A program made the position numbers and the translations under genes. A stretch of DNA of 64,000 nt from positions 1 to 64,000 of IMG/VR virus record IMGVR_UViG_3300049929_000026. One strand, written 5' to 3'. The notes under the pieces are model-generated. The model searched no databases and was not told where the DNA came from. It saw nothing but the letters and a program-made list of their open reading frames with translations. Positions 1 to 35,347 of the stretch are shown piece after piece (the stretch's first letter is position 1; each line of letters starts with the position of its first letter). This stretch comes from a virus.

Positions 1-1755
1 CGCGAGGAGGCTCTGCGGATCGTCGCGCTCGTCAAGGAAATCGAGGCAGCAACGAAGCGGCCCACGGAACTGCTCCAAGAACTGGACGCCGCCCGCGCGC
101 TCCAAACAGACCTAGAGAAGCGAATCGCGGCCTGCCGCGCAATCATCGCCGACAGGGACCAAATCCGGGGCGCCGCCGGGCGAATTACGGAGATCGACGC
201 GGAACTGGCGCGTCTCGGCACTGACGGCGCGCAGGTGCAGGCAGATCTAGCGAAGGCGGAGGCTGAGCACAGCGCAGCGCGTGAGCAGCTGGCCTCCGCG
301 CGGCGTGAGAAGCGATCCGCCGAGGAGCTAGCTGCGCGCCTCACCGAGCGCCTGGCCGATGAGGGCAAGGTCACGGCAGCTGCGGCTACGCTGCCAGAGC
401 GCAAACTGGCCGAAGAAACCGCGCGCAAAGCGGTGAAAATGCTCGAAGACGAGCGCGAAGGGGTGCTGCTCGAGCGACAGGCTGGTTCTGACGAGCGGAT
501 TGCTGGGCTTAGGAAGGGCCTGACGCTCGTGACCGAGATCAGTCCCGACGACGCCTACGAGATAGCGACAGGAATCGCCTCACAGCACCTCGCCGAGGAC
601 GATCAAGTCTTGCGCTCTGCGGAAGACAAGCGCTCTCGTGGGGTCGCCCTATTCAAGGCGGTCAACGACGCCAGGGCTGCAGCCGAGGCGATTACCCAGG
701 AACGATCGAAGCTGGGTCAGCTCGCAGCGCGCGCGCCCGAGTTCGTCGCCGCGCGCGCTGAGATCGAGACCACTAGGGCAATGATCGCCGACGCCTTAGC
801 TCGGGAAACAGCCGCCGATCAGCGGGTCATCCTGGCACACAACGCGTGCGAGCCGCTCCGCACTGCGGCCGCCCCAATCCGCGCCCAGGAAGACGCACTG
901 CGCGCCGAGCGTGAGCCCCTGGTGGCTCTAGCGGCTAAAGCTGATCTGCTCACCAAAGCCGAAGTGCTGATTGGAGAGCGCGCGACTCAACTCCAGGCCG
1001 CCCAGGCCGATCTCGGCCGCATCGCCGAGCAAATCTCTGCCACGCCGGAGCCGGCAATCCCCCCGCCGGCTCCGGACGTGGCTGCCTTATCCAAGGCCCT
1101 CAATGACGCGGAGCAGCTGGCGCGCCAGCATCATGCCGCGGCAGCGGTCGCCGCCCAGCGCTTTACGGCTACCCAGGAGGGTCAGGCGCGCCTGAGCGAG
1201 CTGCAGACCGCCTACGACGCGGCCGCCGAGGAACTGGCCGACTGGAATCGCCTCGCGACCGACTTCGGCCGCGACGGGCTACAGAGCGCGGAGGTCGACT
1301 CAGCCGGACCCGAGCTCACCGCCCTAACGAATACGCTGCTACATGCCTGCCACGGCCCGCAGTTCACCGTTTCGATCGAGACCAGCCGCCTCTCCTCCGA
1401 CGGCAAGGGCGAGGTCGAAGAGTGCCGCGTTCAGGTGATCGACTCGGTCCAAGGGCGCGAGGGGGAGGCGCGCGAATTTAGCGGTGGCCAATCCGTGATC
1501 ATTGGCGAAGCCATCTCGTTGGCTCTCACCGTGCTCGCCTGCAACCGCGCCGGCTTGACCGGGATCACGCTAGTGCGTGATGAGTCGGGTGCTGCGCTCG
1601 ACCCAGCGGCGGGCCGCGCGTACGTCAAGATGCTACGTATGGCTGCCGACTTCGTGAAAGCCTCTCGCGTGTTGCTCGTGACCCACAGCAAAGAGTGCGC
1701 TGAGATGTGTGACGCGCGGATCCTGATCAAGGACGGGAAGGTGTCCTATGCCTGA
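1..1755 (+). CDS. SbcC/Rad50-like SMC ATPase (5'-truncated)
   Basis: Frame open from base 1; long coiled coil, FSGGQ signature, RDESGAALD Walker B/D-loop, VTH H-loop. Confidence 0.85.
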   Translation, partial: REEALRIVALVKEIEAATKRPTELLQELDAARALQTDLEKRIAACRAIIADRDQIRGAAGRITEIDAELARLGTDGAQVQADLAKAEAEHSAAREQLASARREKRSAEELAARLTERLADEGKVTAAAATLPERKLAEETARKAVKMLEDEREGVLLERQAGSDERIAGLRKGLTLVTEISPDDAYEIATGIASQHLAEDDQVLRSAEDKRSRGVALFKAVNDARAAAEAITQERSKLGQLAARAPEFVAARAEIETTRAMIADALARETAADQRVILAHNACEPLRTAAAPIRAQEDALRAEREPLVALAAKADLLTKAEVLIGERATQLQAAQADLGRIAEQISATPEPAIPPPAPDVAALSKALNDAEQLARQHHAAAAVAAQRFTATQEGQARLSELQTAYDAAAEELADWNRLATDFGRDGLQSAEVDSAGPELTALTNTLLHACHGPQFTVSIETSRLSSDGKGEVEECRVQVIDSVQGREGEAREFSGGQSVIIGEAISLALTVLACNRAGLTGITLVRDESGAALDPAAGRAYVKMLRMAADFVKASRVLLVTHSKECAEMCDARILIKDGKVSYA

Positions 1756-2375: not shown

Positions 2376-3241
2376 GCACCTTAGCGATCGACACCGCAGC
2401 TGCGCCGCTCACAAAATTCGTCGGCGGGAAAAGGCAGCTCCTGCCCGAGATCCTTCCGCGCATCCCAGCGAAGATCAAAACCTACTACGAGCCGTTCTGT
2501 GGCGGTGCAGCAGTCTTTTTTGCGCTCGCTAACGAGGGACGATTCAAGCAGGGGAGCGCGGTGCTCGCTGACACGAACGCCGCCCTGATCAACATGCTGA
2601 CCGAAGTCCGAGACCGGCCCGCATCGGTCATCACTCACCTGCACTCGCACGATGCGAAGCACTCCGAAGAGCACTACTACTTGCAACGTGGCGGGCGGCA
2701 GGAAGGCCCCGCTGGCGCCGCTCGATTCATCTACCTGCTCAAAACCTGCTTCAACGGGCTATGGCGCGAGAATCAGGACGGCGGCATGAACGCGCCGTTC
2801 GGGCATCATGAGCCCAAGCCGAAGATCGTCAACGCCTCGGCTATCCGAGCGGCTTCGCGCTCCCTGCAAGGGGTCACGATTATTCGCGAGGACTTTGAAA
2901 CCGTGATGGAGCGCGCTGGAGTAGGGGACTTCGGGTTCTTCGATCCGCCGTATCTCCCCGCATCCAAGACCGCAAACTTTGTGGCCTACGGCAGCGCCGG
3001 ATTCGGTATCACAGACCACGAGCGCCTAGCCGACTGCATGGCGGCAACCGTCAAGCGCGGAGCTCGCGCCTTGCTCTCAAACTCGGACACGCCCGAGGCC
3101 CGTCACATCTTCGGTCGGCGCGGTTGGCAGGTTGAAGAGGTGAAGGCACGGCGGAGCATCAACTCGAATGGCGCCAAGCGGGGTGCAGTCGGTGAAATCC
3201 TGGTGAGTGCACCGAAGCTATCTCGAAAGGTGGTCAAGTGA
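2372..3241 (+). CDS. dam: Dam-family (D12 class) DNA adenine methyltransferase
   Basis: GGKRQL, YYEPFCGGAAVFF, FNGLWREN, DPPY, LSNS motifs. Confidence 0.92.
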   Translation: MSTLAIDTAAAPLTKFVGGKRQLLPEILPRIPAKIKTYYEPFCGGAAVFFALANEGRFKQGSAVLADTNAALINMLTEVRDRPASVITHLHSHDAKHSEEHYYLQRGGRQEGPAGAARFIYLLKTCFNGLWRENQDGGMNAPFGHHEPKPKIVNASAIRAASRSLQGVTIIREDFETVMERAGVGDFGFFDPPYLPASKTANFVAYGSAGFGITDHERLADCMAATVKRGARALLSNSDTPEARHIFGRRGWQVEEVKARRSINSNGAKRGAVGEILVSAPKLSRKVVK

Positions 3242-12316: not shown

Positions 12317-14479
12317 GCAAAATATACGTCATCGGCGTTGAGCCAGAACCGTTCGAGATTTGCGTCGTGGCTGATTCTTACGAAGAAGCGAAGGCGGTAG
12401 CCAAAAAGTACGCGCGGTCGGAGCACGACAATCTCGTGCCAGAGCTTCATATTGGCGTAATCGGTCCGGCGCGTACGGTATCGCACCACGCCACTCGCCG
12501 GGAACCTGCTCTAGCCGGTGCGCCTCGACCGCGTCGCGACATCGACCGCGAAGTGGAGGCGTACTTCGCTGAGCCCCTCCCCGCAGTCGAGACGGAGCGG
12601 AAGCCGTGAGCGACATCGTGATCACCCGCCGCGAGCGCGACGTGCACCGGTATAACCGCCGCTGGCAGCGCGGCGGCATCTACGGAAACAGCATCGACTC
12701 AGCCGCAGGCAAAGAGCTTGACCGGCAAGCCTGGGTCTTCGGCGTCCGCCGCAACGGCGCTCGCTTGTTCGGCTGGCTTTTGCCGTGGCCACAGCGTGAC
12801 GAGACGCTGCGCAAGCGCGCGCATCTGGCATACCAAGGAAGCGCCGGGGCCATGCATTCACAACGTTTGGTGCGGATACAACGACGGCGTCAAGTGCGGA
12901 GACTGCGGAGAGTGGCTTTGCTGGGTGCCAAGTGTCGAGGGGATGCGCTTGTTCACCACTGTGCTGGGAAAGGATGAGCCGTGACCAAGCATTGGCCGCG
13001 CCGCGCGGGCGGAAAGACCCCGGCTCAAACCGCGCTCATGCTGCTCCGTGACCTAAACACGACGCGCTTGACGCGCGATGGCTTCCAGGGGCCGCTCGTT
13101 GAGGAGGCGCTCGAGATTTACGACATGGATCGCGGGTATTCGACGCGGGCTCTCAAGGTTGAGCGGGTCGCCCGCGCCATCGAAAGGAAGGCAAAGAAGT
13201 GAAGCCAATGCGTTGCTACCCAATCGACCGCCTCCGCAAAGTGCGCGTCACGTCGAAGCGAGTCGTCTACCTGGAGTGGTTACAGCTCATCGCGAGCGGA
13301 GAGGCTGGATTCGAACATGCCGCATGGTGAAGAACTCAAGGCGCCCGTCAAAATAGAGACGGTCATCGAGCGCAACAGGACATCCGGTAAATATGAGGTG
13401 CGCGTGCAGTTCGATGACGGTAGATGTGTTTGGTCCGAGCTTACTGCGCGACGGAGAGACACGGCCACCAAAGAGGCCTCAGCGGCGATCGCTCTGATCA
13501 TGAAGACCCGCGCCGAACTGCTTGAAGCCCAGGCGCTAGAACTGATAAATAAGGCGAACTTTTTGCGCGCGTGCGCCCGCGTCAGGGGAGTGATGTGAAT
13601 GCCCGCGTACACCGAACCCAAGACGCCATCACTGGCGGAGGACCTGGAAACGCTCGGCGACTTCTTGCGCCGTCAATACCACGACGTGATGTCACCAGAC
13701 GCCGAGCGAGCGCTGGCAGACCGAGAGCATCTACTGGAGGCGGCAACGCTGCTTGAGCGCCACATCCGCGAGGGCCACGACGCTGGCTTGTTCGTTACCG
13801 GAGCCCGTGACCGGTGGTGGAGAGCCGAGCGCGCACGAAAGGGCAAACCATGAGCGAACCCAAAGCCATCTACGTCGTGACAGGTGATTGTGGCGATTAC
13901 TACTGCGACGGCGCCGTTAGCTCCAGGATGCGGCGCGGCGTAACCGGTGTCGCGCTACTGGCGCCTCCTACCCCGCGAGCGCAGCGCAGATGGCCAGCCA
14001 AGTACACCCAACCCAAGGAGCCGACGAGTGGCTGACCGCAAAAACGAGACCCGCGACAATTTCCGCAAGGAACTCAAGCTCGGCGCAGTCGAGATCGTGC
14101 TCGTTTCGTATCCGGCCAAGATGGCGGCTTTCGCCGCGGGCGATCAGCTTATTGCGGCGCAAATTGCAGAGCTCCGCGCGTTCGCCGATGCACTCGAGGC
14201 AACGCCGAGCATGAAGAGGCCAGGCAACTGATGCCTAACCCCACAATCGAAGAAGACCTGGCTACCCTGAAACACGCCCTCAACAAAGCAGCCATGCTCA
14301 ACAGCACCTTGCCCGCGTTTGATGCACTGGACCGCGTCGCGGCTGCTCTCAAAGAGCCCATCGCCGCACGCCTAGCCTTGCTCGACGAGCTAATCGCCCT
14401 GGACGACGCGAGTCCGGGGGCGCTGTCGGTCTATCAGGCGGTGGGCGCGTTGCGGGAGAAGTATGGGAAACCCCGCTGA
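12313..14479 (+). other. cluster of short, mostly coupled hypothetical genes (12313-12609, 12606-12977, 12981-13202, 13317-13598, 13599-13853, 14028-14231, 14231-14479)
   Basis: Chain of overlapping or adjacent start/stop codons on + strand; no recognisable domains. Confidence 0.5.
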
Positions 14480-19047: not shown

Positions 19048-20283
19048 ATGCGAGTCATCAAAAAAGACAACGGCGTACCGATCAAGATGTGGACTGATGG
19101 TGTGCCGGTCGAAGAGTCGGCTCTCGAACAGGTCGGGAACGTCTCGACGTTGCCTTTCATCCACAGCCACGTCGCTTTGATGCCGGACGCTCACTGGGGG
19201 ATCGGAGCGACCGTTGGTAGCGTGATCCCAACGATTGGGGCCGTTATTCCTGCAGCTGTGGGCGTTGATTTGGGATGCGGAATGTGTGCCGTCAAGACGA
19301 CGCTCCGCGCCGCGGACCTTCCGGACAACCTGCTCGCCATGCGAAGTGCCATCGAGGCAGCGGTGCCTCACGGGCGCACGAACAACGGCGGCCCTGGCGA
19401 CCGCGGGGCGTGGGGCCACGTACCGAAACCCACGGCCGCTACTTGGTATGGCACTGGGTTGAGCGACCCGGACTCGCTTCGCTCACGGTTTGAACTTCTA
19501 TGTCACAGACATCCGACGATTGCGAAGTCGAACCACGTTCAGCACCTCGGCACGCTCGGCGGCGGCAACCATTTCGTCGAGGTCTGCCTCGACACCGAGG
19601 ACTGGGTGTGGGTGATGCTGCATTCCGGGTCGCGCGGAGTCGGCGGCCGCATCGGTTCTTACTTCATCGAGCTTGCCAAAGAGGACATGCGCAAGTGGTT
19701 CATCAACCTGCCCGACAAAGACCTGGCCTATTTTCCGGAAGGGACTGACCACTTCAACGATTACGTCGAAGCCGTTGAGTGGGCTCAGGACTTCGCGCGC
19801 GAGAACCGCCGGCTCATGTTGGACGCCACGCTGCGAGCGATCGAAACCGAACTCGGCAAGCCGTTCGCGCAGCTGGCCGCGGTGATTCAGTGCCACCACA
19901 ACTACATCAGTCGTGAGCGTCACTACGGCGAGAACGTGATCGTGACCCGCAAGGGCGCCGTCCGCGCACGCGAAGGAGAGCTCGGAATCATCCCGGGCAG
20001 CATGGGCGCCAAGTCGTTCATCGTGCGCGGGAAGGGCAACCGGGAGAGCTTCGAGTCCTGCTCGCACGGGGCGGGGCGGGCGATGTCACGGACTGAAGCG
20101 AAGCGCCGGTTCACGGTGGAAGACCACGCGGCGGCTACGGCCGGTGTGGAATGCCGAAAAGACGCCGAGGTGGTGGATGAGACACCGGCTGCCTACAAGA
20201 GCATTGACGATGTCATGCTTGCCCAGCGGGACCTCGTGGAGATCGTGGCTGAGCTAAAGCAGGTTCTATGCGTGAAGGGCTAG
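19048..20283 (+). CDS. rtcB: RtcB RNA ligase
   Basis: MPDAHWG, VGVDLGCGM, GTLGGGNHF, LHSGSRG, HHNY, PGSMG, SHGAGR, DETPAAYK. Confidence 0.97.
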   Translation: MRVIKKDNGVPIKMWTDGVPVEESALEQVGNVSTLPFIHSHVALMPDAHWGIGATVGSVIPTIGAVIPAAVGVDLGCGMCAVKTTLRAADLPDNLLAMRSAIEAAVPHGRTNNGGPGDRGAWGHVPKPTAATWYGTGLSDPDSLRSRFELLCHRHPTIAKSNHVQHLGTLGGGNHFVEVCLDTEDWVWVMLHSGSRGVGGRIGSYFIELAKEDMRKWFINLPDKDLAYFPEGTDHFNDYVEAVEWAQDFARENRRLMLDATLRAIETELGKPFAQLAAVIQCHHNYISRERHYGENVIVTRKGAVRAREGELGIIPGSMGAKSFIVRGKGNRESFESCSHGAGRAMSRTEAKRRFTVEDHAAATAGVECRKDAEVVDETPAAYKSIDDVMLAQRDLVEIVAELKQVLCVKG

Positions 20284-26011: not shown

Positions 26012-26157
26012 GGACCATGGTCGGCGAGCGGGGGTAAGCCTACTGTTGCGCGGAGAGGCGGCGTTCGCTGCGGGGGACGAGCTTGAGCGTGTGCCAGCCG
26101 CTGCGAGCCCTACCGATTGGGCCTAGCGCTAACATCTTTTATGATGTATGTTTAGGC

Positions 26158-26340
26158 ATGAGTTCGGCGGAGATCATCAAGCTACTGAAAGCCGCTGGCT
26201 GGACACTGAAGCGGGTCTCGGGTTCGCACCATCAGTTCAAGCACGCCACGCTGCCGCTCGTGGTTACCGTCCCGCACCCGCGCAAGGACGTCCCGAAGGG
26301 GACCGCCGAAGCGATACTCAAAGCCGCTGGTCTGAAATAA
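26158..26340 (+). CDS. hicA: HicA toxin
   Basis: GW...RVSGSHHQFKH...VTVPHPRKDVPKGT. Confidence 0.93.
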   Translation: MSSAEIIKLLKAAGWTLKRVSGSHHQFKHATLPLVVTVPHPRKDVPKGTAEAILKAAGLK

Positions 26341-26350
26341 GGAGACCACC

Positions 26351-26764
26351 ATGCAATACCGAGCAACATTCGAAAAAGTAGGGCGCACGTTCAACGTGAG
26401 TTTTCCGGACTGCCCGGGGTGCCTCACCTTCGGGAAGAGCGAAGCTGAGGCACTCGCGATGGCGCACGAGGCTCTCGAGGGATGGCTTGAGGCCTGCCTG
26501 GTTTCTGGCGTTGTTCCGCCGGCGCCGAAGGCAAAACGCGGCCATGCGATCACGGTCAACCCGCACCTGTCGGCGGTCGTCTTGATTCGTCAGCGCCGTG
26601 CTGCCCTGGGTCTCTCTCAGGCAGAGGTAGCCAAACGCGCGGGCTTGTCGCAGCAGCAGATTGCTCGGCTCGAGAACCCAGACGGGAATCCAACGGTGGC
26701 GACACTGGCTAAGGTCGCTGAAGCGCTTGGGTCCAGGGTCGAGCTGAGCCTGACGGCGGCCTGA
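26351..26764 (+). CDS. hicB: HicB antitoxin with C-terminal HTH
   Basis: VSFPDCPGCLTFGKSEAEA; GLSQAEVA...IARLE HTH. Confidence 0.92.
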   Translation: MQYRATFEKVGRTFNVSFPDCPGCLTFGKSEAEALAMAHEALEGWLEACLVSGVVPPAPKAKRGHAITVNPHLSAVVLIRQRRAALGLSQAEVAKRAGLSQQQIARLENPDGNPTVATLAKVAEALGSRVELSLTAA

Positions 26765-26767
26765 GCT

Positions 26768-27106
26768 GTGGCCATAAGCAAGACGGTTCGACCCGTCTCA
26801 CCGGGTGAGGTACTCCGTGAGCAGCTCGAAGAGCTCGGCATGTCGGCAAACGCGCTGGCGGCCGCGCTGCACGTGCCAACGAATCGAATCACCGGCATCC
26901 TGAACGCGACGCGCGCGCTCACGCCGGAGACAGCGCTGCGGCTCGAGCGGTACTTCGCGGGCACCACCGCGCAGTTCTGGCTCAACATGCAAACCAGCTT
27001 CGACCTGCGCCGTGCAGAGCTCAAGATCGGCACTGCGCTCCGCGAAATTTGTCCGCTGAGGCGTTTAACGGTCCGACCTGAAACAAAAGAAAAAAGCCCC
27101 CGATAG
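26768..27106 (+). CDS. higA: HigA-family antitoxin (orphan)
   Basis: PGEVLRE, ALTPETALRLERYF.TTAQFWLNMQ. Confidence 0.9.
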   Translation: MAISKTVRPVSPGEVLREQLEELGMSANALAAALHVPTNRITGILNATRALTPETALRLERYFAGTTAQFWLNMQTSFDLRRAELKIGTALREICPLRRLTVRPETKEKSPR

Positions 27107-27409: not shown

Positions 27410-27413
27410 GTAG

Positions 27414-27496
27414 CGGAAGACCGAGTACTCGAAACCCACGGTGTTACCCGCACACTGCTTTCGAAACAGGTTCAGCGCCTTGCTGATTGATCTTCC
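27414..27496 (-). tRNA. tRNA-Ser(CGA)
   Basis: Loop TT-CGA-AA, long variable arm, G73. Confidence 0.82.
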
Positions 27497-27498
27497 AA

Positions 27499-27580
27499 TG
27501 GCCGAGAGTTGTGGAATCGAACCACCATCCGTGGATGTGCCAGTTTTCAAGGCTGGTTTGCCGCCATCGCCAAACCCTCG
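27499..27580 (-). tRNA. tRNA-Ser(TGA)
   Basis: Loop CT-TGA-AA, variable arm, GCCA end. Confidence 0.8.
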
Positions 27581-27581
27581 G

Positions 27582-27662
27582 CGGAGAGCGACGTACTCGA
27601 AACGCAGGCCGTAGCCCCATCCGCTTTCCAAGCGGCGCCCGCGCCCCGCGGGTTCACTCTCC
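27582..27662 (-). tRNA. tRNA-Ser(GGA)
   Basis: Loop TT-GGA-AA, variable arm, GGAGAG acceptor. Confidence 0.85.
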
Positions 27663-27670
27663 AAAGTAGC

Positions 27671-28186
27671 TCACGCTAGGTCGCGCACGAAGCTCAACCA
27701 TTCCTCGGGTGCATTGCTCACGTCGATGCGCGGCCCGACGTGCGGCAGCGAACGCGGCGCAACCGGATCGCGTATTGGAAACATGCCGGCCTCGTCGCAA
27801 CTCTTGTTGGCCTTGCGCGAATTGCAGCTGCGGCACGCGCTGGCGATGTTCGACCACTCGGTGCGACCGCCAGCGGACCTAGGCACGACGTGGTCGTAAG
27901 TCAGATCACGCTCCGCGAACTTGTTGCCGCAATACTGGCAGCGGTACCCGTCTCGTGTGTAGACGTTCGCGCGTGAAAAGCGCACCCCGCGCTGGGCACG
28001 CTTCGGCAAGTGCTTGAGGCGCATCACCGCAGGCACATTCCAGGTCACCGAGGGCGAGGAGATTTCGTCCTCATACTCGACCACCACTTCGGCGTTGCCC
28101 TCGTAGCGGAGCTTCACCGCATCCTGCCAGTGCAGGATGCGTATCGGTACGTACCAAGGTGAGAGCAAGAGCGTTCGCGTGTGCAT
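27671..28186 (-). CDS. HNH endonuclease inside the tRNA array
   Basis: FSRANVYTRDGYRCQYCG, TYDHVVPRSAGG.TEWSNI.SAC..CNSRK. Confidence 0.92.
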   Translation of the reverse strand: MHTRTLLLSPWYVPIRILHWQDAVKLRYEGNAEVVVEYEDEISSPSVTWNVPAVMRLKHLPKRAQRGVRFSRANVYTRDGYRCQYCGNKFAERDLTYDHVVPRSAGGRTEWSNIASACRSCNSRKANKSCDEAGMFPIRDPVAPRSLPHVGPRIDVSNAPEEWLSFVRDLA

Positions 28187-29047: not shown

Positions 29048-29123
29048 TAGCGTGGCCACGAATTGAACGTGGTATCTCCGAGGTTATGAGCCTGGCGGGC
29101 TAGTCCGTCGCCCTCCACACGCA
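29048..29123 (-). tRNA. tRNA-fMet-like (CAT)
   Basis: GGCTCATAACC, GTTCAATTC, unpaired 1:72. Confidence 0.72.
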
Positions 29124-29124
29124 G

Positions 29125-29193
29125 CGCTCCCGTGGTGAATCGAACACCATAGTCAGCCTTCGGAGGGCCGACGCGAAACCCGTTCGCGAGAGC
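29125..29193 (-). tRNA. tRNA-Arg(CCG)
   Basis: CGGCC-CTCCGAA-GGCTG, short D arm. Confidence 0.78.
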
Positions 29194-29196
29194 AAA

Positions 29197-29270
29197 TGGA
29201 GTCTCCGGAAGGAGTCGAGCCTTCGCAGTCAGCGTTCGTAGCGCCGATGTCCAAATCCCTGGACGGAGAC
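29197..29270 (-). tRNA. tRNA-Arg(ACG)
   Basis: CGGCG-CTACGAA-CGCTG, CCA end. Confidence 0.82.
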
Positions 29271-29271
29271 A

Positions 29272-29346
29272 TGGCACCCCACTGCGGTATCGATCCGCAT
29301 CCTCGACGCTGAGAACGTCGCGACCTAGCCAGTAGTCGAGTGGGGC
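29272..29346 (-). tRNA. tRNA-Glu(CTC)
   Basis: CGACG-TTCTCAG-CGTCG, GCCA end. Confidence 0.88.
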
Positions 29347-29347
29347 G

Positions 29348-29418
29348 TGGCGCTTTCGTAGGTGATCGAAACCTACACCGCGAGCTTAGAAGGCTCAGGG
29401 CCATCCATTGGCGAAAGC
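29348..29418 (-). tRNA. tRNA-Arg(TCT)
   Basis: TGAGC-CTTCTAA-GCTCG, GCCA end, short D arm. Confidence 0.8.
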
Positions 29419-29420
29419 GT

Positions 29421-29491
29421 TGGAGACGCGCCCCGCAATCGAAGCGGGCACCGCTGGGTTGCAATCAGCGTTCGCACCTTGCGTGCGCGTC
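29421..29491 (-). tRNA. tRNA-Cys(GCA)
   Basis: Loop TT-GCA-AC, U73, CCA end. Confidence 0.82.
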
Positions 29492-29591
29492 ATCACTGGG
29501 CCGTGGACACTTTATCCTATGAGCCACGCTCACCCTCAACGTCGAAGGCTGCTGCGACCCACTCGGGCGTTACTCCGAGACCATAGCCCCG

Positions 29592-29923: not shown

Positions 29924-29928
29924 ATTTG

Positions 29929-29999
29929 TGGAGATGTTCGGTAATGCTCCGAATCGGATTGCTTGCAAGGCAAACCAGCAGCCTTCTGCGTCCATCCCC
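29929..29999 (-). tRNA. tRNA-Ala(TGC)
   Basis: Loop CT-TGC-AA, G3:U70 pair, A73. Confidence 0.85.
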
Positions 30000-30076: not shown

Positions 30077-30180
30077 GTGCGCCCTGTCTTCGCCGTAGCT
30101 TGGACAAGACTTGCCTCATGCGTGTTCGCGGTCGTTTGCAACCGTTGCCGCAGCTCCGACGAGCCCACACATGCGACCAG

Positions 30181-30254
30181 CGTCTCGTAGGGGTAACGCT
30201 CCCCTTTCGTCATAGCGTGACAAGCTACCGGCGATACTTATCGCCTCACGAGGC
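30181..30254 (-). tRNA. tRNA-Asp(GTC)
   Basis: GTAGC-TTGTCAC-GCTAT, G73, atypical T loop. Confidence 0.82.
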
Positions 30255-30357
30255 ATTGCGAAAGCGCCTGTGCCCATACCCGCAGCGCACACCTTGCGGT
30301 GATAATTGCCGAGCACAGATCTTTTCATCACGGACGGCTTCACGTGAACTTTCGCGG

Positions 30358-30427
30358 CGCTCTCGGAAGGGGTCGAGCCTTCGTAACTCGGTTTAGGAAA
30401 CCGTGCACCGGATCCGCCGGCGAGAGC
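30358..30427 (-). tRNA. tRNA-Arg(CCT)
   Basis: Loop TT-CCT-AA, GCTCTCG/CGAGAGC. Confidence 0.8.
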
Positions 30428-30734: not shown

Positions 30735-30773
30735 GTGAGCAGACTACTTCTTTCCTCGGTCTGCCAGCGATAG

Positions 30774-30842
30774 AGCCCACTGACGAAATCGAATCGTCCT
30801 GGCGACAGTACAAAAGTCGCTGGTCGCCTTGACCGAGCGGGC
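30774..30842 (-). tRNA. tRNA-Thr(TGT)
   Basis: Loop TT-TGT-AC with U31:U39 mismatch, U73. Confidence 0.78.
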
Positions 30843-30921: not shown

Positions 30922-31002
30922 ATAGGAGGCGATTGGTCGTCGCCTCCGCGTACAGCGAGAGCCCGCCACGCGCTTCACTGCGCGCCGGCATGTCGCTTTT
31001 GG

Positions 31003-31016
31003 ATTGTGAAAGATCA
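31003..31016 (-). promoter_or_regulatory. boxA-like antitermination element
   Basis: TGATCTTTCACAAT resembles rrn boxA TGCTCTTTAACA; preceded by the hairpin GAACGGC-AACTA-GTCGTTC. Confidence 0.55.
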
Positions 31017-31041
31017 GAGAACGACTAGTTGCCGTTCGCCG

Positions 31042-31115
31042 TGGTTGGGAAGGAAGGATTCGAACCTTCGTTGACGAGTTCAGAGCTCATCGTCCTGCCT
31101 CTAGACGACTTCCCA
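31042..31115 (-). tRNA. tRNA-Gln(CTG)
   Basis: ATGAG-CTCTGAA-CTCGT, GGTTCGAATCC, ACCA end. Confidence 0.92.
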
Positions 31116-31373
31116 GCATTGTTTTTGCCGCCGTACGTCGGCGTTTGCGAATGACAGTTGGGACACAGCATCCGGAGATTCTCCGGCCTATGATCGAATT
31201 TTTTCCCGTTCTTGTGATCGAGATGCAGCGATAGCTTCTTGCCGAGCCATTCGTTGATTCCACGCGCCGCAACTGACGTGCAAACCGAGGCGGTTTGCTA
31301 CTTCAGCGAATCCGCAACTCTCGCGAACTGCCACCGCCAATTGTTCGTCAGAATATGATCTCGGTCGTGCCAT
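31116..31373 (-). pseudogene. frameshifted, probably internally deleted HNH endonuclease
   Basis: MARPRSYSDEQLAVAVRES..EVANRLGL in one frame; WLGKKLSLHLDHKNG..DHRPENLRMLCPNCHSQTPTY in another. Confidence 0.8.
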
Positions 31374-31381
31374 TTCCAGAG

Positions 31382-31452
31382 TGCGCCAGCAGGGAATCGG
31401 ACCCTGTCCTACCGGGTAAGAGCCGGTTGCTCGACCAATGAGCTACAAGCGC
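31382..31452 (-). tRNA. tRNA-Lys(CTT)
   Basis: ACCGG-CTCTTAC-CCGGT, TAGCTCA D arm. Confidence 0.88.
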
Positions 31453-31468
31453 GTGGTCAAGTGACCAC
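31453..31468. promoter_or_regulatory. palindrome GTGGTCA-AG-TGACCAC (dispersed motif, 5 copies)
   Basis: Variants at 3230-3245, 7319-7334, 15524-15539 and 20295-20310. Confidence 0.6.
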
Positions 31469-31470
31469 AG

Positions 31471-31542
31471 TGAGTCTGGCGGGATTTGAACCCGCGCCGC
31501 ATGGATTAAAAGTCCAGCATGCCGCCACAACACTTCAGACCC
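31471..31542 (-). tRNA. tRNA-Lys(TTT)
   Basis: Loop CT-TTT-AA, GGTTCAAATCC. Confidence 0.88.
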
Positions 31543-31599
31543 GCAGTTAGCGAGTCGAGCGTTTAGGTAGCGATGTCCTTTCTTGATTCATGAGTTACC

Positions 31600-31684
31600 T
31601 GGTGGGTCGCCTTGGTGTTGATCCAAGCTAGCCAATGGCACCTGATTTACAGTCAGGCCTGCGTCCCGGCGCAGCACACGACCC
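31600..31684 (-). tRNA. tRNA-Tyr(GTA)
   Basis: CCTGA-CTGTAAA-TCAGG, variable arm, ACCA end; first tRNA of the array. Confidence 0.88.
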
Positions 31685-31722
31685 AGAAACGAGAAAAGGC
31701 GCCGCGGTTTCCCGGGCGCCTT
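31685..31722 (-). terminator. attenuator terminator directly before the first tRNA
   Basis: AAGGCGCC-CGG-GAAA-CCG-C-GGCGCCUU followed by UUCUCGUUUCU. Confidence 0.75.
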
Positions 31723-31749
31723 CACTGAAACCAGTGGAAAAACGCCCGT

Positions 31750-31857
31750 TTAACTTGTACCTGGCTCCTGCGAAATGGTTGCGAATTGCGCATAGCTCGG
31801 CTTTGAATCGCTTTCGCGATTCCAGCACGTGGCTAGGTGGAGAGCTATGCGTGTCAT
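31750..31857 (-). CDS. putative leader peptide MTRIALHLATCWNRESDSKPSYAQFATISQEPGTS
   Basis: ATG 9 nt after a -10-like box; stop codon 1 nt before the antiterminator arm; 32 distinct codons in 35. Confidence 0.65.
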   Translation of the reverse strand: MTRIALHLATCWNRESDSKPSYAQFATISQEPGTS

Positions 31858-31866
31858 GGCTTGTTG

Positions 31867-31895
31867 AAGGTGAACCTGTGCGCGCCGATTGTCCA
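31867..31895 (-). promoter_or_regulatory. putative promoter of the tRNA array
   Basis: TGGACA-17 nt-CACCTT. Confidence 0.5.
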
Positions 31896-31944
31896 GAACT
31901 AAATGCATCGTGTCAGTACGAAAGTTTGCTGGGTGCCAATGGCT

Positions 31945-31978
31945 GAAAGCGCCGACCCCTTTCGGAGCCGGCGCTTTC
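31945..31978. terminator. hairpin ending the late operon
   Basis: GAAAGCGCCG...CGGCGCTTTC inverted repeat downstream of the stop at 32016. Confidence 0.65.
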
Positions 31979-32015
31979 TCGTTGTTGATGCGGGCGGCGT
32001 ACCGCACGCAGAGTT

Positions 32016-32828
32016 TTATTCGGTGGGCGAGTGCGGAGGTGCGGGCTCAGGGTCGCACGCGCCGCCCTTTTCGATCGACCAGGGAGCGGTTGGCCAGAGA
32101 ACGCGTGGCTTCGCCGTCGGCGCGTTCTGTTCGACCCACGTCACGTCGTCATGCGCGCCGTCGACCCGGTGACCCGTCCCGCGCTCGATGGCGGAATCGC
32201 GCTCGGCGTCCATGCAGCGAGACCATTTCGCGTGTGCTCGAGTATATTTCTCGAGCAGCAGGATTCGGTCCTCGACCGTACCCGTCGTGCGCTTTTGGGT
32301 CTCCTGCTTGTTCTCGGTCGTCGCGACTCGCGGGGCGAGCGTCTCGACACGATAGGCCAGGTAGGCCCCGCATGGCACCAGGATGGCGACCATTGCGCCG
32401 CCCAGTTTGTACAGGAGAGCATTCCATTGGCCGCGCGTCGGCGTGTCAGGGGGCACGGTAGGCTCGACGACTGGCTTCTTTGCCGCTGCCAGCTCCAGGC
32501 GCAGCCTGGCCGCCTCTGCCTCGGCCGCTCGAGCCTGCTGCCCCTTCGCTGCGAGCTCGGCTAGGATTGCCTCTGTTGAGATTTCCCCCGTGTCGAGCTT
32601 CTCGCGCATCGGAGGAAACTCGCTCGGCGGCGCCGGCATCCCGACTGCTGTCTGAGTGCGCGGTACTGGGCGAGCCATCGGTAGGGGCTTCGGGTCGTGC
32701 GGGATTTGCGGCGGCCGAGCTGTGGCGCGCTGGTCAAATGTCGGCGGCCGCGCGGTATGCGGATGAGTCGTAGCGTCGACCTCCGTCACACTTATTCGAC
32801 CGCGCGGGCGTTGTTTTTCGTCGTTCAT
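32016..32828 (-). CDS. hypothetical single-pass membrane protein
   Basis: Pro-rich N-terminus, one hydrophobic helix (LGGAMVAILVPCGAYL). Confidence 0.65.
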   Translation of the reverse strand: MNDEKQRPRGRISVTEVDATTHPHTARPPTFDQRATARPPQIPHDPKPLPMARPVPRTQTAVGMPAPPSEFPPMREKLDTGEISTEAILAELAAKGQQARAAEAEAARLRLELAAAKKPVVEPTVPPDTPTRGQWNALLYKLGGAMVAILVPCGAYLAYRVETLAPRVATTENKQETQKRTTGTVEDRILLLEKYTRAHAKWSRCMDAERDSAIERGTGHRVDGAHDDVTWVEQNAPTAKPRVLWPTAPWSIEKGGACDPEPAPPHSPTE

Positions 32829-32937
32829 GGCTTTGCGGCGCGCCGAGCGGTGATATGGTATCGAGGCAAACAAAGTGAGCCCCGCGCTGTGTCTAGCAGC
32901 CGAGGCTCATGGCCAAACCTGGTTGAGAGGTTCGACG

Positions 32938-33906
32938 ATGAGCAACATACAGCCCTGCACCGATACAGCAACCGCTCTCAGCAAACCTTGCCGCAAATGT
33001 GGCGGCAGGGGGCCGTTCTCTTTTGAGAGGCGCGGAGATAGAATCATCCGACGCGCGCAATGCAAACAGTGCGTAAATAGCCGGAAAAGGGACAGCTATC
33101 ACACGCCGGAGGGTATTGCGTATGTGCGGGCTTACTGGGCAGCGCGTTCCACTAGGACTAATGCCCAGGCTGGGATCGATAAGATTATTGATATGACAGG
33201 GATGGTGATCGGCAGGCTGACTGTTCTAGGAAGGGCACCGGACCGCGTAGGGCGCCGACCTAAACAGTGGGCCTGCATATGTGCATGCGGAAACCGCGTC
33301 ACGGTGTGCGGAACAATGCTTCGTCGTAGGTCGCGTCCGCCGACGCGATCCTGTGGGTGTTTATCCATCGCCGATAGGACCGTCCCACCGGGGGAGCCTC
33401 CGCTCGGGTGTCGATTCATTCCGTTGACTCGCGGAAAACTAGCGATAGTTGACGAGGCTGACTACGCCGAGCTGATGATGTTCCGTTGGCATACGCGTGT
33501 GGCCAGAACGGCTCACCACACGCAATACTATGCGATGCGCTGCGTCCACCGTCGCGGCCAGACGTATCACATCGGTATGCACCAACACCTGTTACCTGTG
33601 CCTGCGGGCAAGGAAGTGGACCATAAAGATCGTGACGGATTGAACAACAGGCGCGGGAATCTGCGCCCGTGCTCACGGCAAGAGAACTCGTTCAACACTC
33701 GTCGCTATTCGCCGACTAAAACTAGCGTTCTTCATGGAGTAAGTCGCCGACGGGATGTGTTGAAAATAACCTGGGTTGCACGGCTAGCGAGGAGACATCT
33801 GGGCTCTTTTGGTACTCAGGAAGAAGCGGCTCGCGCCTATGACCATGCCGCTATCAATACGGCAGGCGAATTTGCGGCGCCCAACTTCAAGCGATATTTA
33901 CGATGA
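32938..33906 (+). CDS. HNH/AP2-domain homing endonuclease
   Basis: IGRLTV..CICACG..SCGC, VDHKDRDGLNNRRGNLR, HLGSF.TQEEAARAYD; start after GAGAGG. Confidence 0.9.
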   Translation: MSNIQPCTDTATALSKPCRKCGGRGPFSFERRGDRIIRRAQCKQCVNSRKRDSYHTPEGIAYVRAYWAARSTRTNAQAGIDKIIDMTGMVIGRLTVLGRAPDRVGRRPKQWACICACGNRVTVCGTMLRRRSRPPTRSCGCLSIADRTVPPGEPPLGCRFIPLTRGKLAIVDEADYAELMMFRWHTRVARTAHHTQYYAMRCVHRRGQTYHIGMHQHLLPVPAGKEVDHKDRDGLNNRRGNLRPCSRQENSFNTRRYSPTKTSVLHGVSRRRDVLKITWVARLARRHLGSFGTQEEAARAYDHAAINTAGEFAAPNFKRYLR

Positions 33907-33911
33907 GCGTG

Positions 33912-34556
33912 CTACTCGGTTTTCGTCGCTCCATTTGTTCCCTCTAATTTCAAGCTTTCAAGTGCCGCTTCGAGCCGGTCCATGCGCGCGATCAGCTGGT
34001 CGAGCCCGGCCACCTGCGAACGCATTGCGGCCAGTTCTAGCTTGATGGTCTCGAACTGCTCATCGCCGTCTTCAAGGCGCTCTTCGACCTTGCCAATTCT
34101 CGGCGGTAGCTCGCGAACGATCGCCTCCAGATCTCCGACCTTGGCCGCGATCTTCTGCACCTCGTGATTGGTGAGCTCGAAGTTTTTCTTCGTCTCTTCC
34201 TTGGTGCGCTCCGTTCGCTTTTCAGCCTCGGAGTTGATTCGGTCGACGGCACTATCAAGCAGTACGTCGAACGCCTGCTGGTTCTCGAAGCTGCGCAACA
34301 CGAGCGCGATCGACATCTCTACGTAGCTGTCAGGATTCGGAGGCGGGAGCTTACGGATGGCCGTGACAAGCTCGGGCGGCAGCGGGCGTAGCTTCGGAAT
34401 CATAGCGGCAAGCTCAGCCGGCTCGCTCGGCTTTAGATTGTGCGGGGCTGTCGGCAGTTCACGATCGTCGGTTGTCATAATGAGGCGTGGATTCCTAGTT
34501 GGGCGATCGGGTCGGATCAGGAGCGCGCGGTCTGCCTTCAAACGCTCGGCGATCAT
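33912..34556 (-). CDS. coiled-coil hypothetical protein
   Basis: Heptad-rich C-terminal half, coupled to the lysin gene. Confidence 0.6.
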   Translation of the reverse strand: MIAERLKADRALLIRPDRPTRNPRLIMTTDDRELPTAPHNLKPSEPAELAAMIPKLRPLPPELVTAIRKLPPPNPDSYVEMSIALVLRSFENQQAFDVLLDSAVDRINSEAEKRTERTKEETKKNFELTNHEVQKIAAKVGDLEAIVRELPPRIGKVEERLEDGDEQFETIKLELAAMRSQVAGLDQLIARMDRLEAALESLKLEGTNGATKTE

Positions 34557-35347
34557 CAGGAGTATTCCGGCGCGTCGTGATCAGCGCGGAGGTCGAGGGA
34601 GGCGAGGGCGCCGTTCGTCAGGGCATCCAAACGCGCTTGCCAGGTGACTTCGTGCGGCTCCTCAGGAGGCTTGCCGCCTGGCACCACGGACGGGTATTCA
34701 CCGGGCACCTTGCTCGCAATGGGCAGCGGGTCGATGGCGCGGTCCTGGTCGATCACCATGGGGTTTACCGCGCCGCCGGGCCCGTCAGGAACGAATGGTC
34801 CAACGCGATGCTGCCAGATGGCCCAGGGCTTGTTGCCAGGCGTCGCTGGTGCCGATGTGCTGGTATAGTGGGCCACCCAAAGCGGCCGGTTGAGTACGAA
34901 GGCAGGCTTGCCGAGGCGGCCGAAGTCGCGCTGCGTGATGTAACAGAGCGCTTCGCCGAACGAATCAACGAGACCATTGAGCATCGCCCGGACGCCGTCC
35001 TGCCAGCTCGGATCGATCTTCGGCCCCTTGGCACCGTCGTCCTCGACATCGAGCGCGGGGCAGATGTCACCCGAACGCATGCCGACATCGTGGGCGGCCG
35101 CGCAGAACGCAGTGAGCTGGTCAGCGACAGGCTGGCTCGAGCGGAAGAAGTGGTAGAGGCCGACCTGCATGCCCGCGTCGCGTGCGCGGGCAATGTGCCC
35201 GATCGCGCTCGGGTCCTTCCACGTGCCGTATGTGGCGCGCACGATCACGAACTGGCACCCCTTGGCGAGAATGGGCCAGGCGATGCCACCGGGGGCTGAG
35301 GTTGACTGAAAGTGGCTGACATCGCAGCCGTACAGAAGCTCCGTCAT
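34556..35347 (-). CDS. GH25 lysozyme (endolysin)
   Basis: GCDVSHFQ, VRATYG, GLYHF, LDVE, LWVAHY, WAIWQ. Confidence 0.92.
   Translation of the reverse strand: MTELLYGCDVSHFQSTSAPGGIAWPILAKGCQFVIVRATYGTWKDPSAIGHIARARDAGMQVGLYHFFRSSQPVADQLTAFCAAAHDVGMRSGDICPALDVEDDGAKGPKIDPSWQDGVRAMLNGLVDSFGEALCYITQRDFGRLGKPAFVLNRPLWVAHYTSTSAPATPGNKPWAIWQHRVGPFVPDGPGGAVNPMVIDQDRAIDPLPIASKVPGEYPSVVPGGKPPEEPHEVTWQARLDALTNGALASLDLRADHDAPEYS

Follow-up and report, generated by a model that had tools for sequence, protein, structure and literature searches.

How phages time the synthesis of the transfer RNAs (tRNAs) that their tRNA arrays encode is, to our knowledge, largely unexplained. Such arrays are now viewed as tools against tRNA-cleaving defenses and host shut-off, according to the available parts of three papers on phage tRNAs (PMC10264068, PMC11464382, and PMC11555353). 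Here, we ask what could control one array on the minus strand of a soil phage, the IMG/VR virus record IMGVR_UViG_3300049929_000026, of which the first 64 kb (64,000 nucleotides (nt), referred to as the window) were examined; the record is 137.6 kb long, ~86% complete, and has a G+C content of 62%. The question centers on the stretch directly ahead of the first tRNA gene, where an earlier note, made from the DNA letters alone, had described a promoter-like site, a 35-codon open reading frame (ORF), a pairing between the RNA just past the stop codon and the 5' arm of an intrinsic terminator, and tRNA-Tyr, and had interpreted them as a leader-peptide attenuator. Each of these elements was recovered where it had been placed on the minus strand, and the leader-ORF attenuator anatomy is real and conserved in all four loci for which DNA was compared. 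We lean, with modest confidence, toward regarding the unit as a ribosome-mediated transcription attenuator that heads the tRNA operon and ties its transcription to the speed of translation.

A conserved leader unit ahead of the tRNA array

The DNA comparison comprised the window and three related loci, L034, L037, and L039, while the other 11 of 15 known family peptides are represented by protein sequence. In all four loci, a promoter is followed by a short ORF, an antiterminator overlapping a terminator, and then tRNA genes; the earlier note had suggested looking for this architecture upstream of homologous arrays, and it is kept in the three relatives. L034, which is 89% identical to the window over 343 nt, was found through a pattern made from the invariant stretch around the −10 element and the ATG that soil and rhizosphere contig tables had shown. 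L037 was found by peptide alignment in a metagenome-assembled genome (MAG) labelled Polyangiaceae, and L039 by a six-frame search of the same MAG, on another contig. The leader is followed in the window and in L037 by tRNA-Tyr, Lys, Lys, Gln, Asn, Glu and onward, in L039 by a tRNA-like gene (called at relaxed settings only) and then Lys, Lys, Asn, Phe, Pro, His, and Thr, and in L034 by 10 nt of tRNA-Tyr, a 16-base-pair (bp) palindrome, an HNH gene, a second palindrome, and the contig end. Three more partial relatives in the contig tables match 31730-31880 (8 differences), 31763-31909 (22 differences, 2 gaps), and 31758-31840 (14 differences), with several of the changes being third-position synonymous.

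The promoter (31904-31867, minus strand) comprises the AT-rich segment ATTTAGTTC at 31904-31896, a −35 hexamer TGGACA at 31895-31890, a 17-nt spacer, and a −10 hexamer CACCTT at 31872-31867, and the 9 nt of CAACAAGCC (31866-31858) separate the −10 hexamer from the ATG at 31857. The 71 nt up to this ATG align without gaps in all four loci, and the geometry T[TG]GAC[AC], 17 nt, CAnnnT, 9 nt, ATG is present in every one of them. Invariant are the TxGAC of the −35 and the C, A, and last T of the −10, precisely the bases that are important for a sigma-70 promoter, together with the length of the 9-nt gap and its G at −3 and C at −1. Between 26500 and 32500, the pattern T[TG]GACN-16..18-[TC]ANNNT has a single match on both strands together, which is the leader promoter, and the interval between the terminator and tRNA-Tyr is too short for any promoter. 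We infer from this spacing that transcription would start 0–4 nt before the AUG, giving a transcript that is leaderless or carries a leader of ~3 nt. A promoter-like site named by a consensus scan (31916-31888) was dropped, as it is not conserved in L037 and L039.

The leader ORF (MTRIALHLATCWNRESDSKPSYAQFATISQEPGTS, 31857-31750, minus strand) has 35 sense codons and a TAA stop codon at 31752-31750. Frame, start, and stop are kept in the other loci, where the ORF spans 35 (L034), 40 (L037), and 34 codons (L039), and the TAA of the window is TAG at the same place in L034. Of the 13 codons that differ between the window and L034 (TAA to TAG counted), 7 are synonymous in the ORF frame, compared to 1/11 and 1/10 in the other frames; for the window and L037, the respective counts are 5/11 versus 0/12 and 1/11. 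The ORF is coding-like by this measure and may be translated. The 95 nt of non-coding DNA upstream hold 4 differences between the window and L034, compared to 18 in the 108 nt of the ORF, so that the flanks are more constrained than the silent sites of the ORF.

Two other frames over the same DNA were dropped. The first is a 52- or 85-amino-acid (aa) frame upstream of the ATG, in which 2 of 8 changed codons between the window and L037 are synonymous (hand-read) and whose conserved bases coincide with the −35 and −10; the other is an antisense ORF at 31635-31946 (plus strand), whose second codon positions are the third codon positions of the leader (hand check). A perfect 10-bp stem around an AAUCGC-GAAA-GCGAUU hairpin lies inside the ORF (31789-31851, minus strand; −29 kcal/mol, z = −4.98). 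Structured RNA inside the ORF was likewise dropped as a candidate, the 10-bp outer stem not being kept in L034, and the stem may be specific to the window phage or could hold up the ribosome at that point. Within its 3' half, the ORF also contains a tandem 9-mer, CAATTCGCA / CATTTCGCA (31769-31788, minus strand), and at this position L037 carries a threefold TTTGCT expansion that adds FAFAFA to the peptide.

One nt after the stop codon begins region 1 (CGGGCGUUUU, 31748-31739, minus strand), the 5' arm of the antiterminator, which pairs with AAGGCGCCCG at 31722-31713 around CACUG/CAGUG. These last motifs form an inner hairpin, CACUG-GUUU-CAGUG (31736-31732 / 31727-31723), which caps the antiterminator and persists beside the terminator. 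The partner of region 1 is part of the 5' arm (AAGGCGCCCGG, 31722-31712) of the intrinsic terminator T2 (31722-31696, −22.2 kcal/mol), which is completed by a GAAA loop and the 3' arm CCGCGGCGCCUU (31707-31696). The U-tract UUUUCUCGUUUCU (31697-31685) abuts tRNA-Tyr, which starts at 31684; it is the same in the window, L034, and L037, and reads UUUUUUCGUUUU in L039. The bulged hairpin of T2 was not among the elements reported by the consensus promoter/terminator scan.

Folding gave the behavior that the earlier note had predicted. RNA that ends with the T2 5' arm, as a nascent transcript would, adopts the antiterminator (−22.0 kcal/mol), and RNA blocked through region 1 adopts the terminator (−27.0 kcal/mol including a small hairpin), but, unlike in the note's description, the equilibrium fold of the RNA from the ORF end to the U-tract has the terminator formed rather than the antiterminator (−30.9 kcal/mol). 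The two structures are close in energy throughout, with −22.0 kcal/mol for the antiterminator and −22.2 kcal/mol for the terminator in the window, −24.1 and −22.7 in L034, where the antiterminator is the equilibrium fold, −23.1 and −23.5 in L037, and −24.5 and −22.7 in L039. When the upstream segment was shuffled 1000 times, the duplex (−18.1 kcal/mol in the window) was reached by a fraction of 0.006 of the shuffles for the window, none for L034, 0.011 for L037, and 0.004 for L039.

All 48 of 48 cells of T2 are paired across the four loci, among them one fully compensated pair that reads G:C in two of the loci but C:G in the others. The CGGGCG core of region 1 is the same in the window, L034, and L037, and L039 has GGGCG-C-GC there. 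The inner hairpin is also present in every locus, as CACU/AGUG in L034, AUCAGGC/GCCAGAU in L037, and CACUG/CAGUG with another loop in L039. Region 1 starts 0–3 nt after the stop codon in all four loci, despite differing C-termini of the peptides (GTS, GS, LGS), and its pairing with the 5' arm starts 2–5 nt past the first stop-codon base. The size of the ribosome footprint, which underlies blocking at the end of an ORF, is well established.

Amino-acid content of the leader peptides and of the array

The leader ORF of the window uses 32 distinct codons in 35 and encodes 19 kinds of amino acids, with Val absent, as had been counted in the earlier note. This codon diversity is not a family trait, the distinct codons amounting to 31/35 in L034, 30/34 in L039, and 28/40 in L037. 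In the window, too, this diversity is rare but not unique: at least 32 distinct codons occur in 41 of the 131,187 stop-free 35-codon windows of the 137.6-kb genome, spread over ~12 separate places. Composition-matched shuffles give P = 0.005 for the codon diversity, and at least 19 amino-acid kinds are found in 0.76% of 35-aa windows in the phage proteins. Taken alone, these rarity figures would not exclude a lucky ORF. The reported excess of A/T-ending codons is mild in the window, with a third-position G+C content (GC3) of 0.54 versus 0.70 in the phage genes (9th percentile), but is lost in L034 (0.69) and L039 (0.74), both of which are typical. No regulatory codon runs for a sensed amino acid occur in the leader, the FAFAFA insertion of L037 being the sole repeat.

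At the level of amino acids, the suggestion that the leader samples nearly everything extends to the whole family. All 15 known peptides, eleven of which were supplied by two protein searches, hold 18–20 kinds of amino acids in 33–40 residues (mean 19.0), and four hold all 20. Met-1 is aligned in all 15, though gene callers often extended the frame upstream. R14, S16, D17, P20, Y22, A23, F25, and G33 do not vary among the first seven or eight sequences aligned, but P0036-P0038, which were added later, differ at some of these columns. Permutation of residues within alignment columns gives a mean of 17.77 ± 0.21 kinds, and 0 of 5000 permutations reach 19.0, because Lys, Cys, Phe, His, and Asn sit in different columns in different members. 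Neither the observed mean nor its excess over permutation was reached in any of 300 neutral two-clade simulations, and these statistics are those of one family with few independent events, with an approximate simulation tree and rough simulations. Members with 18–22 of 33–34 positions unlike those of the window peptide still contain 18–19 kinds, compared to the 15.5–16.7 that random replacement predicts.

The array behind the leader (31684-27253, minus strand) contains 26 genes at ARAGORN default settings, opens with Tyr, Lys-ttt, and Lys-ctt, an order that recurs behind the leader in L037 and L039, and has at its far end a terminator with a 14-pair stem followed by a T run (27127-27094, minus strand). 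Relaxed settings give 38 tRNA-like genes on the array strand, one of them inside an HNH gene. The relaxed-only genes are low-scoring (27413-27496, 27580-27662, 29049-29513, 29928-29999, 30180-30254, 30356-30427, and 30773-30842, minus strand), fit the array gaps, and add Ala, Arg, Asp, Cys, and Thr-tgt, as well as a second Met-cat and two of unclear identity. With them the array would cover all 20 amino acids, a coverage that is provisional because another 11 calls made at these settings fall on the wrong strand. Many non-canonical tRNAs seem to be among those of the phage. By hand reading with wobble, 33 of the 35 leader codons could be read by an array tRNA, the exceptions being two CGC codons. 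At the position of tRNA-Tyr, L039 has a tRNA-like gene with a changed anticodon loop (1325-1405, minus strand) that abuts the U-tract; it receives no default ARAGORN call and is called Asp-gtc at relaxed settings.

Possible ribosome control of the switch and competing explanations

In the reading that we favor, a sigma-70-type promoter would give rise to a transcript that reaches, within its first few bases, the AUG of an ORF of 33–40 codons. As the polymerase advances, region 1 would pair with the T2 5' arm, and the antiterminator would be the first structure in the nascent RNA. A ribosome on the last codons or on the stop codon would cover region 1, the 5' arm would then pair with the 3' arm, and transcription would terminate at the U-tract before tRNA-Tyr. 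With a ribosome that is late, absent, or stalled in roughly the first 31 codons, the antiterminator would hold and the polymerase would enter the tRNA genes. Since the leader contains nearly every amino acid and the array apparently covers 20, running short of nearly any charged tRNA would lead to more tRNA synthesis, a feedback on decoding capacity.

More tentatively, the leader could be an all-amino-acid test peptide, in which selection would keep about one codon per amino acid in an ORF of 33–35 codons and thereby maintain a universal sensor of decoding capacity; we find this conceivable but doubtful. Equally speculative is the corollary that rare residues would move between positions as the sequence drifts, such that any charged-tRNA shortage would open a 20-amino-acid array. 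It is also possible, though we would not expect it, that this sensor is the extreme of a rule by which the leaders of phage tRNA arrays mirror the repertoire of the array behind them; the nearly complete leader and the apparently complete array of the window would be compatible with such a rule but are no proof of it.

Several observations weigh against control by the ribosome. None of the four loci has a Shine-Dalgarno sequence ahead of the leader ATG, in a phage that makes moderate use of such sites (39% of 153 longest-ORF starts versus 16% in the background), and translation of the leader would need a leaderless or 3-nt-leader start, to which the promoter-to-ATG spacing alone points. In a MAFFT alignment of the four loci, 46 of 52 antiterminator cells are paired and no pair is changed on both sides; the G to C column in the shared arm is compensated by the T2 3' arm and not by region 1, where an A faces C in L037 and a bulge of 1 nt is required in L039. 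A conserved pause or anti-antiterminator (1:2) hairpin is absent, the ORF stem of the window being lost in L034, and with no conserved hairpin enforcing termination the untranslated default would be read-through, unlike in trp. The conserved core of the peptide is more than a pure codon sampler needs, and suggests that the peptide itself may have a function. Two amino-acid kinds are missing in 4 of the 15 peptides, and codon diversity is ordinary in L037, with its FAFAFA expansion. The evidence for the unit further comes from one sequence family, with two of the four DNA loci in a single MAG, and the leader of L034 is intact although an HNH cassette cuts its tRNA-Tyr after 10 nt.

Some of this would be expected if the ORF were simply a gene for a small phage protein, equipped with a promoter of its own and a terminator that leaks, such that partial read-through expresses the array constitutively and the pairing regulates nothing. 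Coding-type substitutions and a conserved core (RxSD, P, YA, F, G) are in keeping with a functional peptide, the antiterminator lacks changes on both sides, and the interruption of the U-tract in the window (UUUUCUCG) makes some read-through likely anyway. Such a gene leaves unexplained, however, why the stop codon stays 0–3 nt before region 1, why two exclusive hairpins of near-equal energy recur in four loci, and why 18–20 amino-acid kinds are kept while residues shift columns, and no Pfam family was matched by the peptide when the 85-aa frame was used as query; we consider this explanation unlikely. The conservation of both folds would also suit a switch that is real but set in trans by an RNA-binding protein of host or phage origin, by an antitermination factor, or by an RNA (which could be a tRNA) at region 1 or the inner hairpin, with the ORF separate or incidental. 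The CGGGCG core, invariant in three of the four loci beside a constant hairpin, could be a binding site, and a 16-bp palindrome that occurs genome-wide points to a phage-encoded regulator, though no copy lies in the leader. To us this is a quite improbable alternative, as the ribosome is suggested by how closely stop codon and region 1 fit and by the distance from promoter to ATG, the leader has no match to a T-box or other cis-regulatory Rfam family at E ≤ 1 (only sub-threshold matches of small-RNA type driven by the terminator), and no candidate for the factor emerged.

The terminated leader of ~175 nt might instead be a trans-acting small RNA, alone or besides cis attenuation, a role that we regard as very unlikely. 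The precedent is rnTrpL (RcsR1, Rfam RF02552), a leaderless trpL attenuator RNA of Sinorhizobium meliloti with a trans role, as far as the available text of PMC6614838 goes. RcsR1 scores 33 bits in L039, 32.3 bits in L038, and 23.5 bits in L035, where it is the best family, and 19.5 bits in the window, where sX12 is marginally higher with 20 bits; all these RcsR1 scores lie below the gathering score of 60. The match is a resemblance and not membership, resting mainly on the terminator, whose hairpin in rnTrpL is near-identical in sequence to that of L039, and on a small hairpin; other small-RNA families with similar terminators score about equally. A small RNA would fit the conserved single-stranded stretch with its CA(A/T)TTCGCA tandem repeat in the window and the better conservation of the flanks than of the synonymous sites of the ORF, but strong 5' structure is not conserved, the substitutions track the codon frame, and there is no known target. 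Least probable of all, and in our view highly improbable, is that the ORF arose by chance in an ordinary spacer whose terminator simply serves the upstream operon, a reading that the conservation of the unit and its promoter and the frame-following substitutions already contradict. The codon diversity of the leader, which also has no Shine-Dalgarno sequence, is equaled at ~12 other places of the genome, but the entire unit is found again in three further loci, where frame, start, and stop are maintained, and the upstream operon has its own conserved terminator, T1 (described below). In L037, moreover, the upstream ORFs that stand out most clearly are on the opposite strand, and one 260-aa same-strand frame (no PHROG match) ends 375 nt before the unit.

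Attenuation by leader peptides is familiar from trpL, hisL, thrL, and the multivalent ilvGMEDA leader. Like these attenuators of amino-acid operons, the unit has a promoter-proximal short ORF, an antiterminator and a terminator that share one arm, and a stop codon placed so that a terminating ribosome would cover the antiterminator 5' arm while upstream stalling would give read-through. It differs from them in a leader without codon runs that holds 18–20 amino-acid kinds in 33–40 residues, in having tRNAs rather than biosynthetic enzymes as targets, in being phage-borne, and in lacking both a conserved 1:2 hairpin and a Shine-Dalgarno sequence. Leaders of the ermC type respond to drug-bound ribosomes at a specific peptide and control the translation of resistance genes, whereas the control proposed here would act on the transcription of tRNA genes. 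What is shared with them is a sensor without amino-acid specificity, in which a slow ribosome switches the RNA structure; the accessible part of PMC2965389, which discusses leader-peptide systems in general, mentions such leaders as sensing an overall slowing of translation. With rnTrpL, the unit would share a leaderless transcript that starts with the leader ORF, as well as an antiterminator (SL2 there) and a terminator (SL3), but the first stem-loop is unmatched, and the short peptide of rnTrpL senses Trp, the controlled gene being trpE(G) (PMC6614838, available text). The leaderless polycysteine short ORFs of mycobacteria, where stalled ribosomes sense Cys and open the next gene's ribosome-binding site (10.1101/834739, in the part available), are likewise first-cistron short ORFs that act as a ribosome-read sensor for downstream genes; in contrast to our unit, they sense one amino acid and exert translational control without a terminator.

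The closest parallel on the side of the targets is the horizontally spread array of more than 20 tRNA genes in Anabaena sp. PCC 7120, which is linked to rtcB and induced on impaired translation (PMC8421152, available text), and the window phage too carries RtcB. Unlike the leader unit, the Anabaena array uses direct repeats over the −10 and start site that are presumably repressor-bound, and the available text of that paper makes no mention of attenuation, a leader peptide, or a terminator. This promoter repression is the only printed mechanism that we found for an inducible array, as given in the same portion of PMC8421152. No published attenuator before tRNA genes was found in the literature covered, subscription journals lying outside it. 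If our favored reading is true, a ribosome-read attenuator would provide direct, protein-free feedback from decoding speed to tRNA supply, and would extend leader-peptide attenuation to RNA genes as targets and to sensing by a peptide that has no codon runs. From the all-amino-acid composition, one would then predict that read-through rises on omission of any single amino acid or tRNA. Judging only from the context, with RtcB and a CCA-adding enzyme encoded nearby, and from published work on phage tRNAs, the biological purpose could be the role against anticodon nucleases that the earlier note had proposed.

Genomic setting and mobile elements

The window phage encodes a myovirus-type sheath, baseplate, portal, capsid, and terminase. 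The last genes of its late block on the minus strand encode a GH25 lysin (34556-35347) and, at 33912-34556 and 32016-32873, two coiled-coil/membrane proteins; the block is followed on this strand by T1, the leader unit, the tRNA array, and the strong terminator at the array end. T1 (31978-31945, minus strand) is a hairpin terminator with 15-nt arms (31978-31964 and 31959-31945) that are 87% complementary, and it closes the late/lysis operon. It is kept in L034 and L030 with many compensated changes, and convergent genes follow directly after it in L030. The protein encoded at 32016-32873 (minus strand), the last late gene, belongs to a family of 25 members of ~230–300 aa, which have a Pro-rich N-terminus, a coiled coil, and a membrane helix, and whose conserved C-terminal domain contains two invariant Cys. 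Neither Pfam nor PHROG gave a match for it, and its position beside the GH25 lysin suggests a role in lysis. The neighboring lysis gene of L034 ends like P0015, a family member that is ~40% identical to the window protein.

Six fetched loci with relatives of this upstream protein (L028-L033) contain no tRNA genes, and L030 resembles the window only over the first 78 nt after the stop codon of the gene, T1 included, which indicates that leader and array are a separate module inserted behind T1. Searches for further relatives of the phage gave little. GenBank phages searched with 31000-33000 returned three records, each with only a 64-nt tRNA-like match and no close relative, and a search with the portal protein returned one GenBank record with 53.8% identity. 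Neither the upstream protein alone nor the CCA-adding enzyme returned anything from IMG/VR, and the exact 27-nt terminator pattern had no matches. A terminase search gave 19 loci, and the 16 of 19 records checked for tRNAs showed three single matches (two over the cut-off) and no array. Across 401 genomes of the phylum of G018, a six-frame search had strong matches in G018 only, together with six weak matches, none beside a tRNA array and one with a lone tRNA-Met.

The array seems to be a homing-endonuclease hotspot. Genes for HNH endonucleases, both within and beside it, and a 61-aa remnant-like ORF within it occupy 27671-28186 and 31188-31373 (minus strand) and 32875-33906 (plus strand). The 16-bp palindrome GTGGTCANNTGACCAC occurs at gene junctions at 31453-31468 and also at 3230, 7319, 15524, and 20295, with nine window matches at up to 3 mismatches compared to 2.3 expected, and a perfect copy stands between two tRNA-Lys genes. 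In L034, two palindromes (13879-13895 and 14334-14349) flank the HNH gene that is inserted after base 10 of tRNA-Tyr, and the palindrome may be an end or target mark of a mobile HNH cassette rather than an operator.

On the plus strand between 19 and 26 kb, the window encodes RtcB (19048-20283), two nucleotidyltransferases, one of which is the CCA-adding enzyme, and an ATP-grasp protein. Between these RNA-repair genes and the end of the array sit HicA-like and HicB-like ORFs and another helix-turn-helix ORF (26083-27106, plus strand), which were named from their translations alone.

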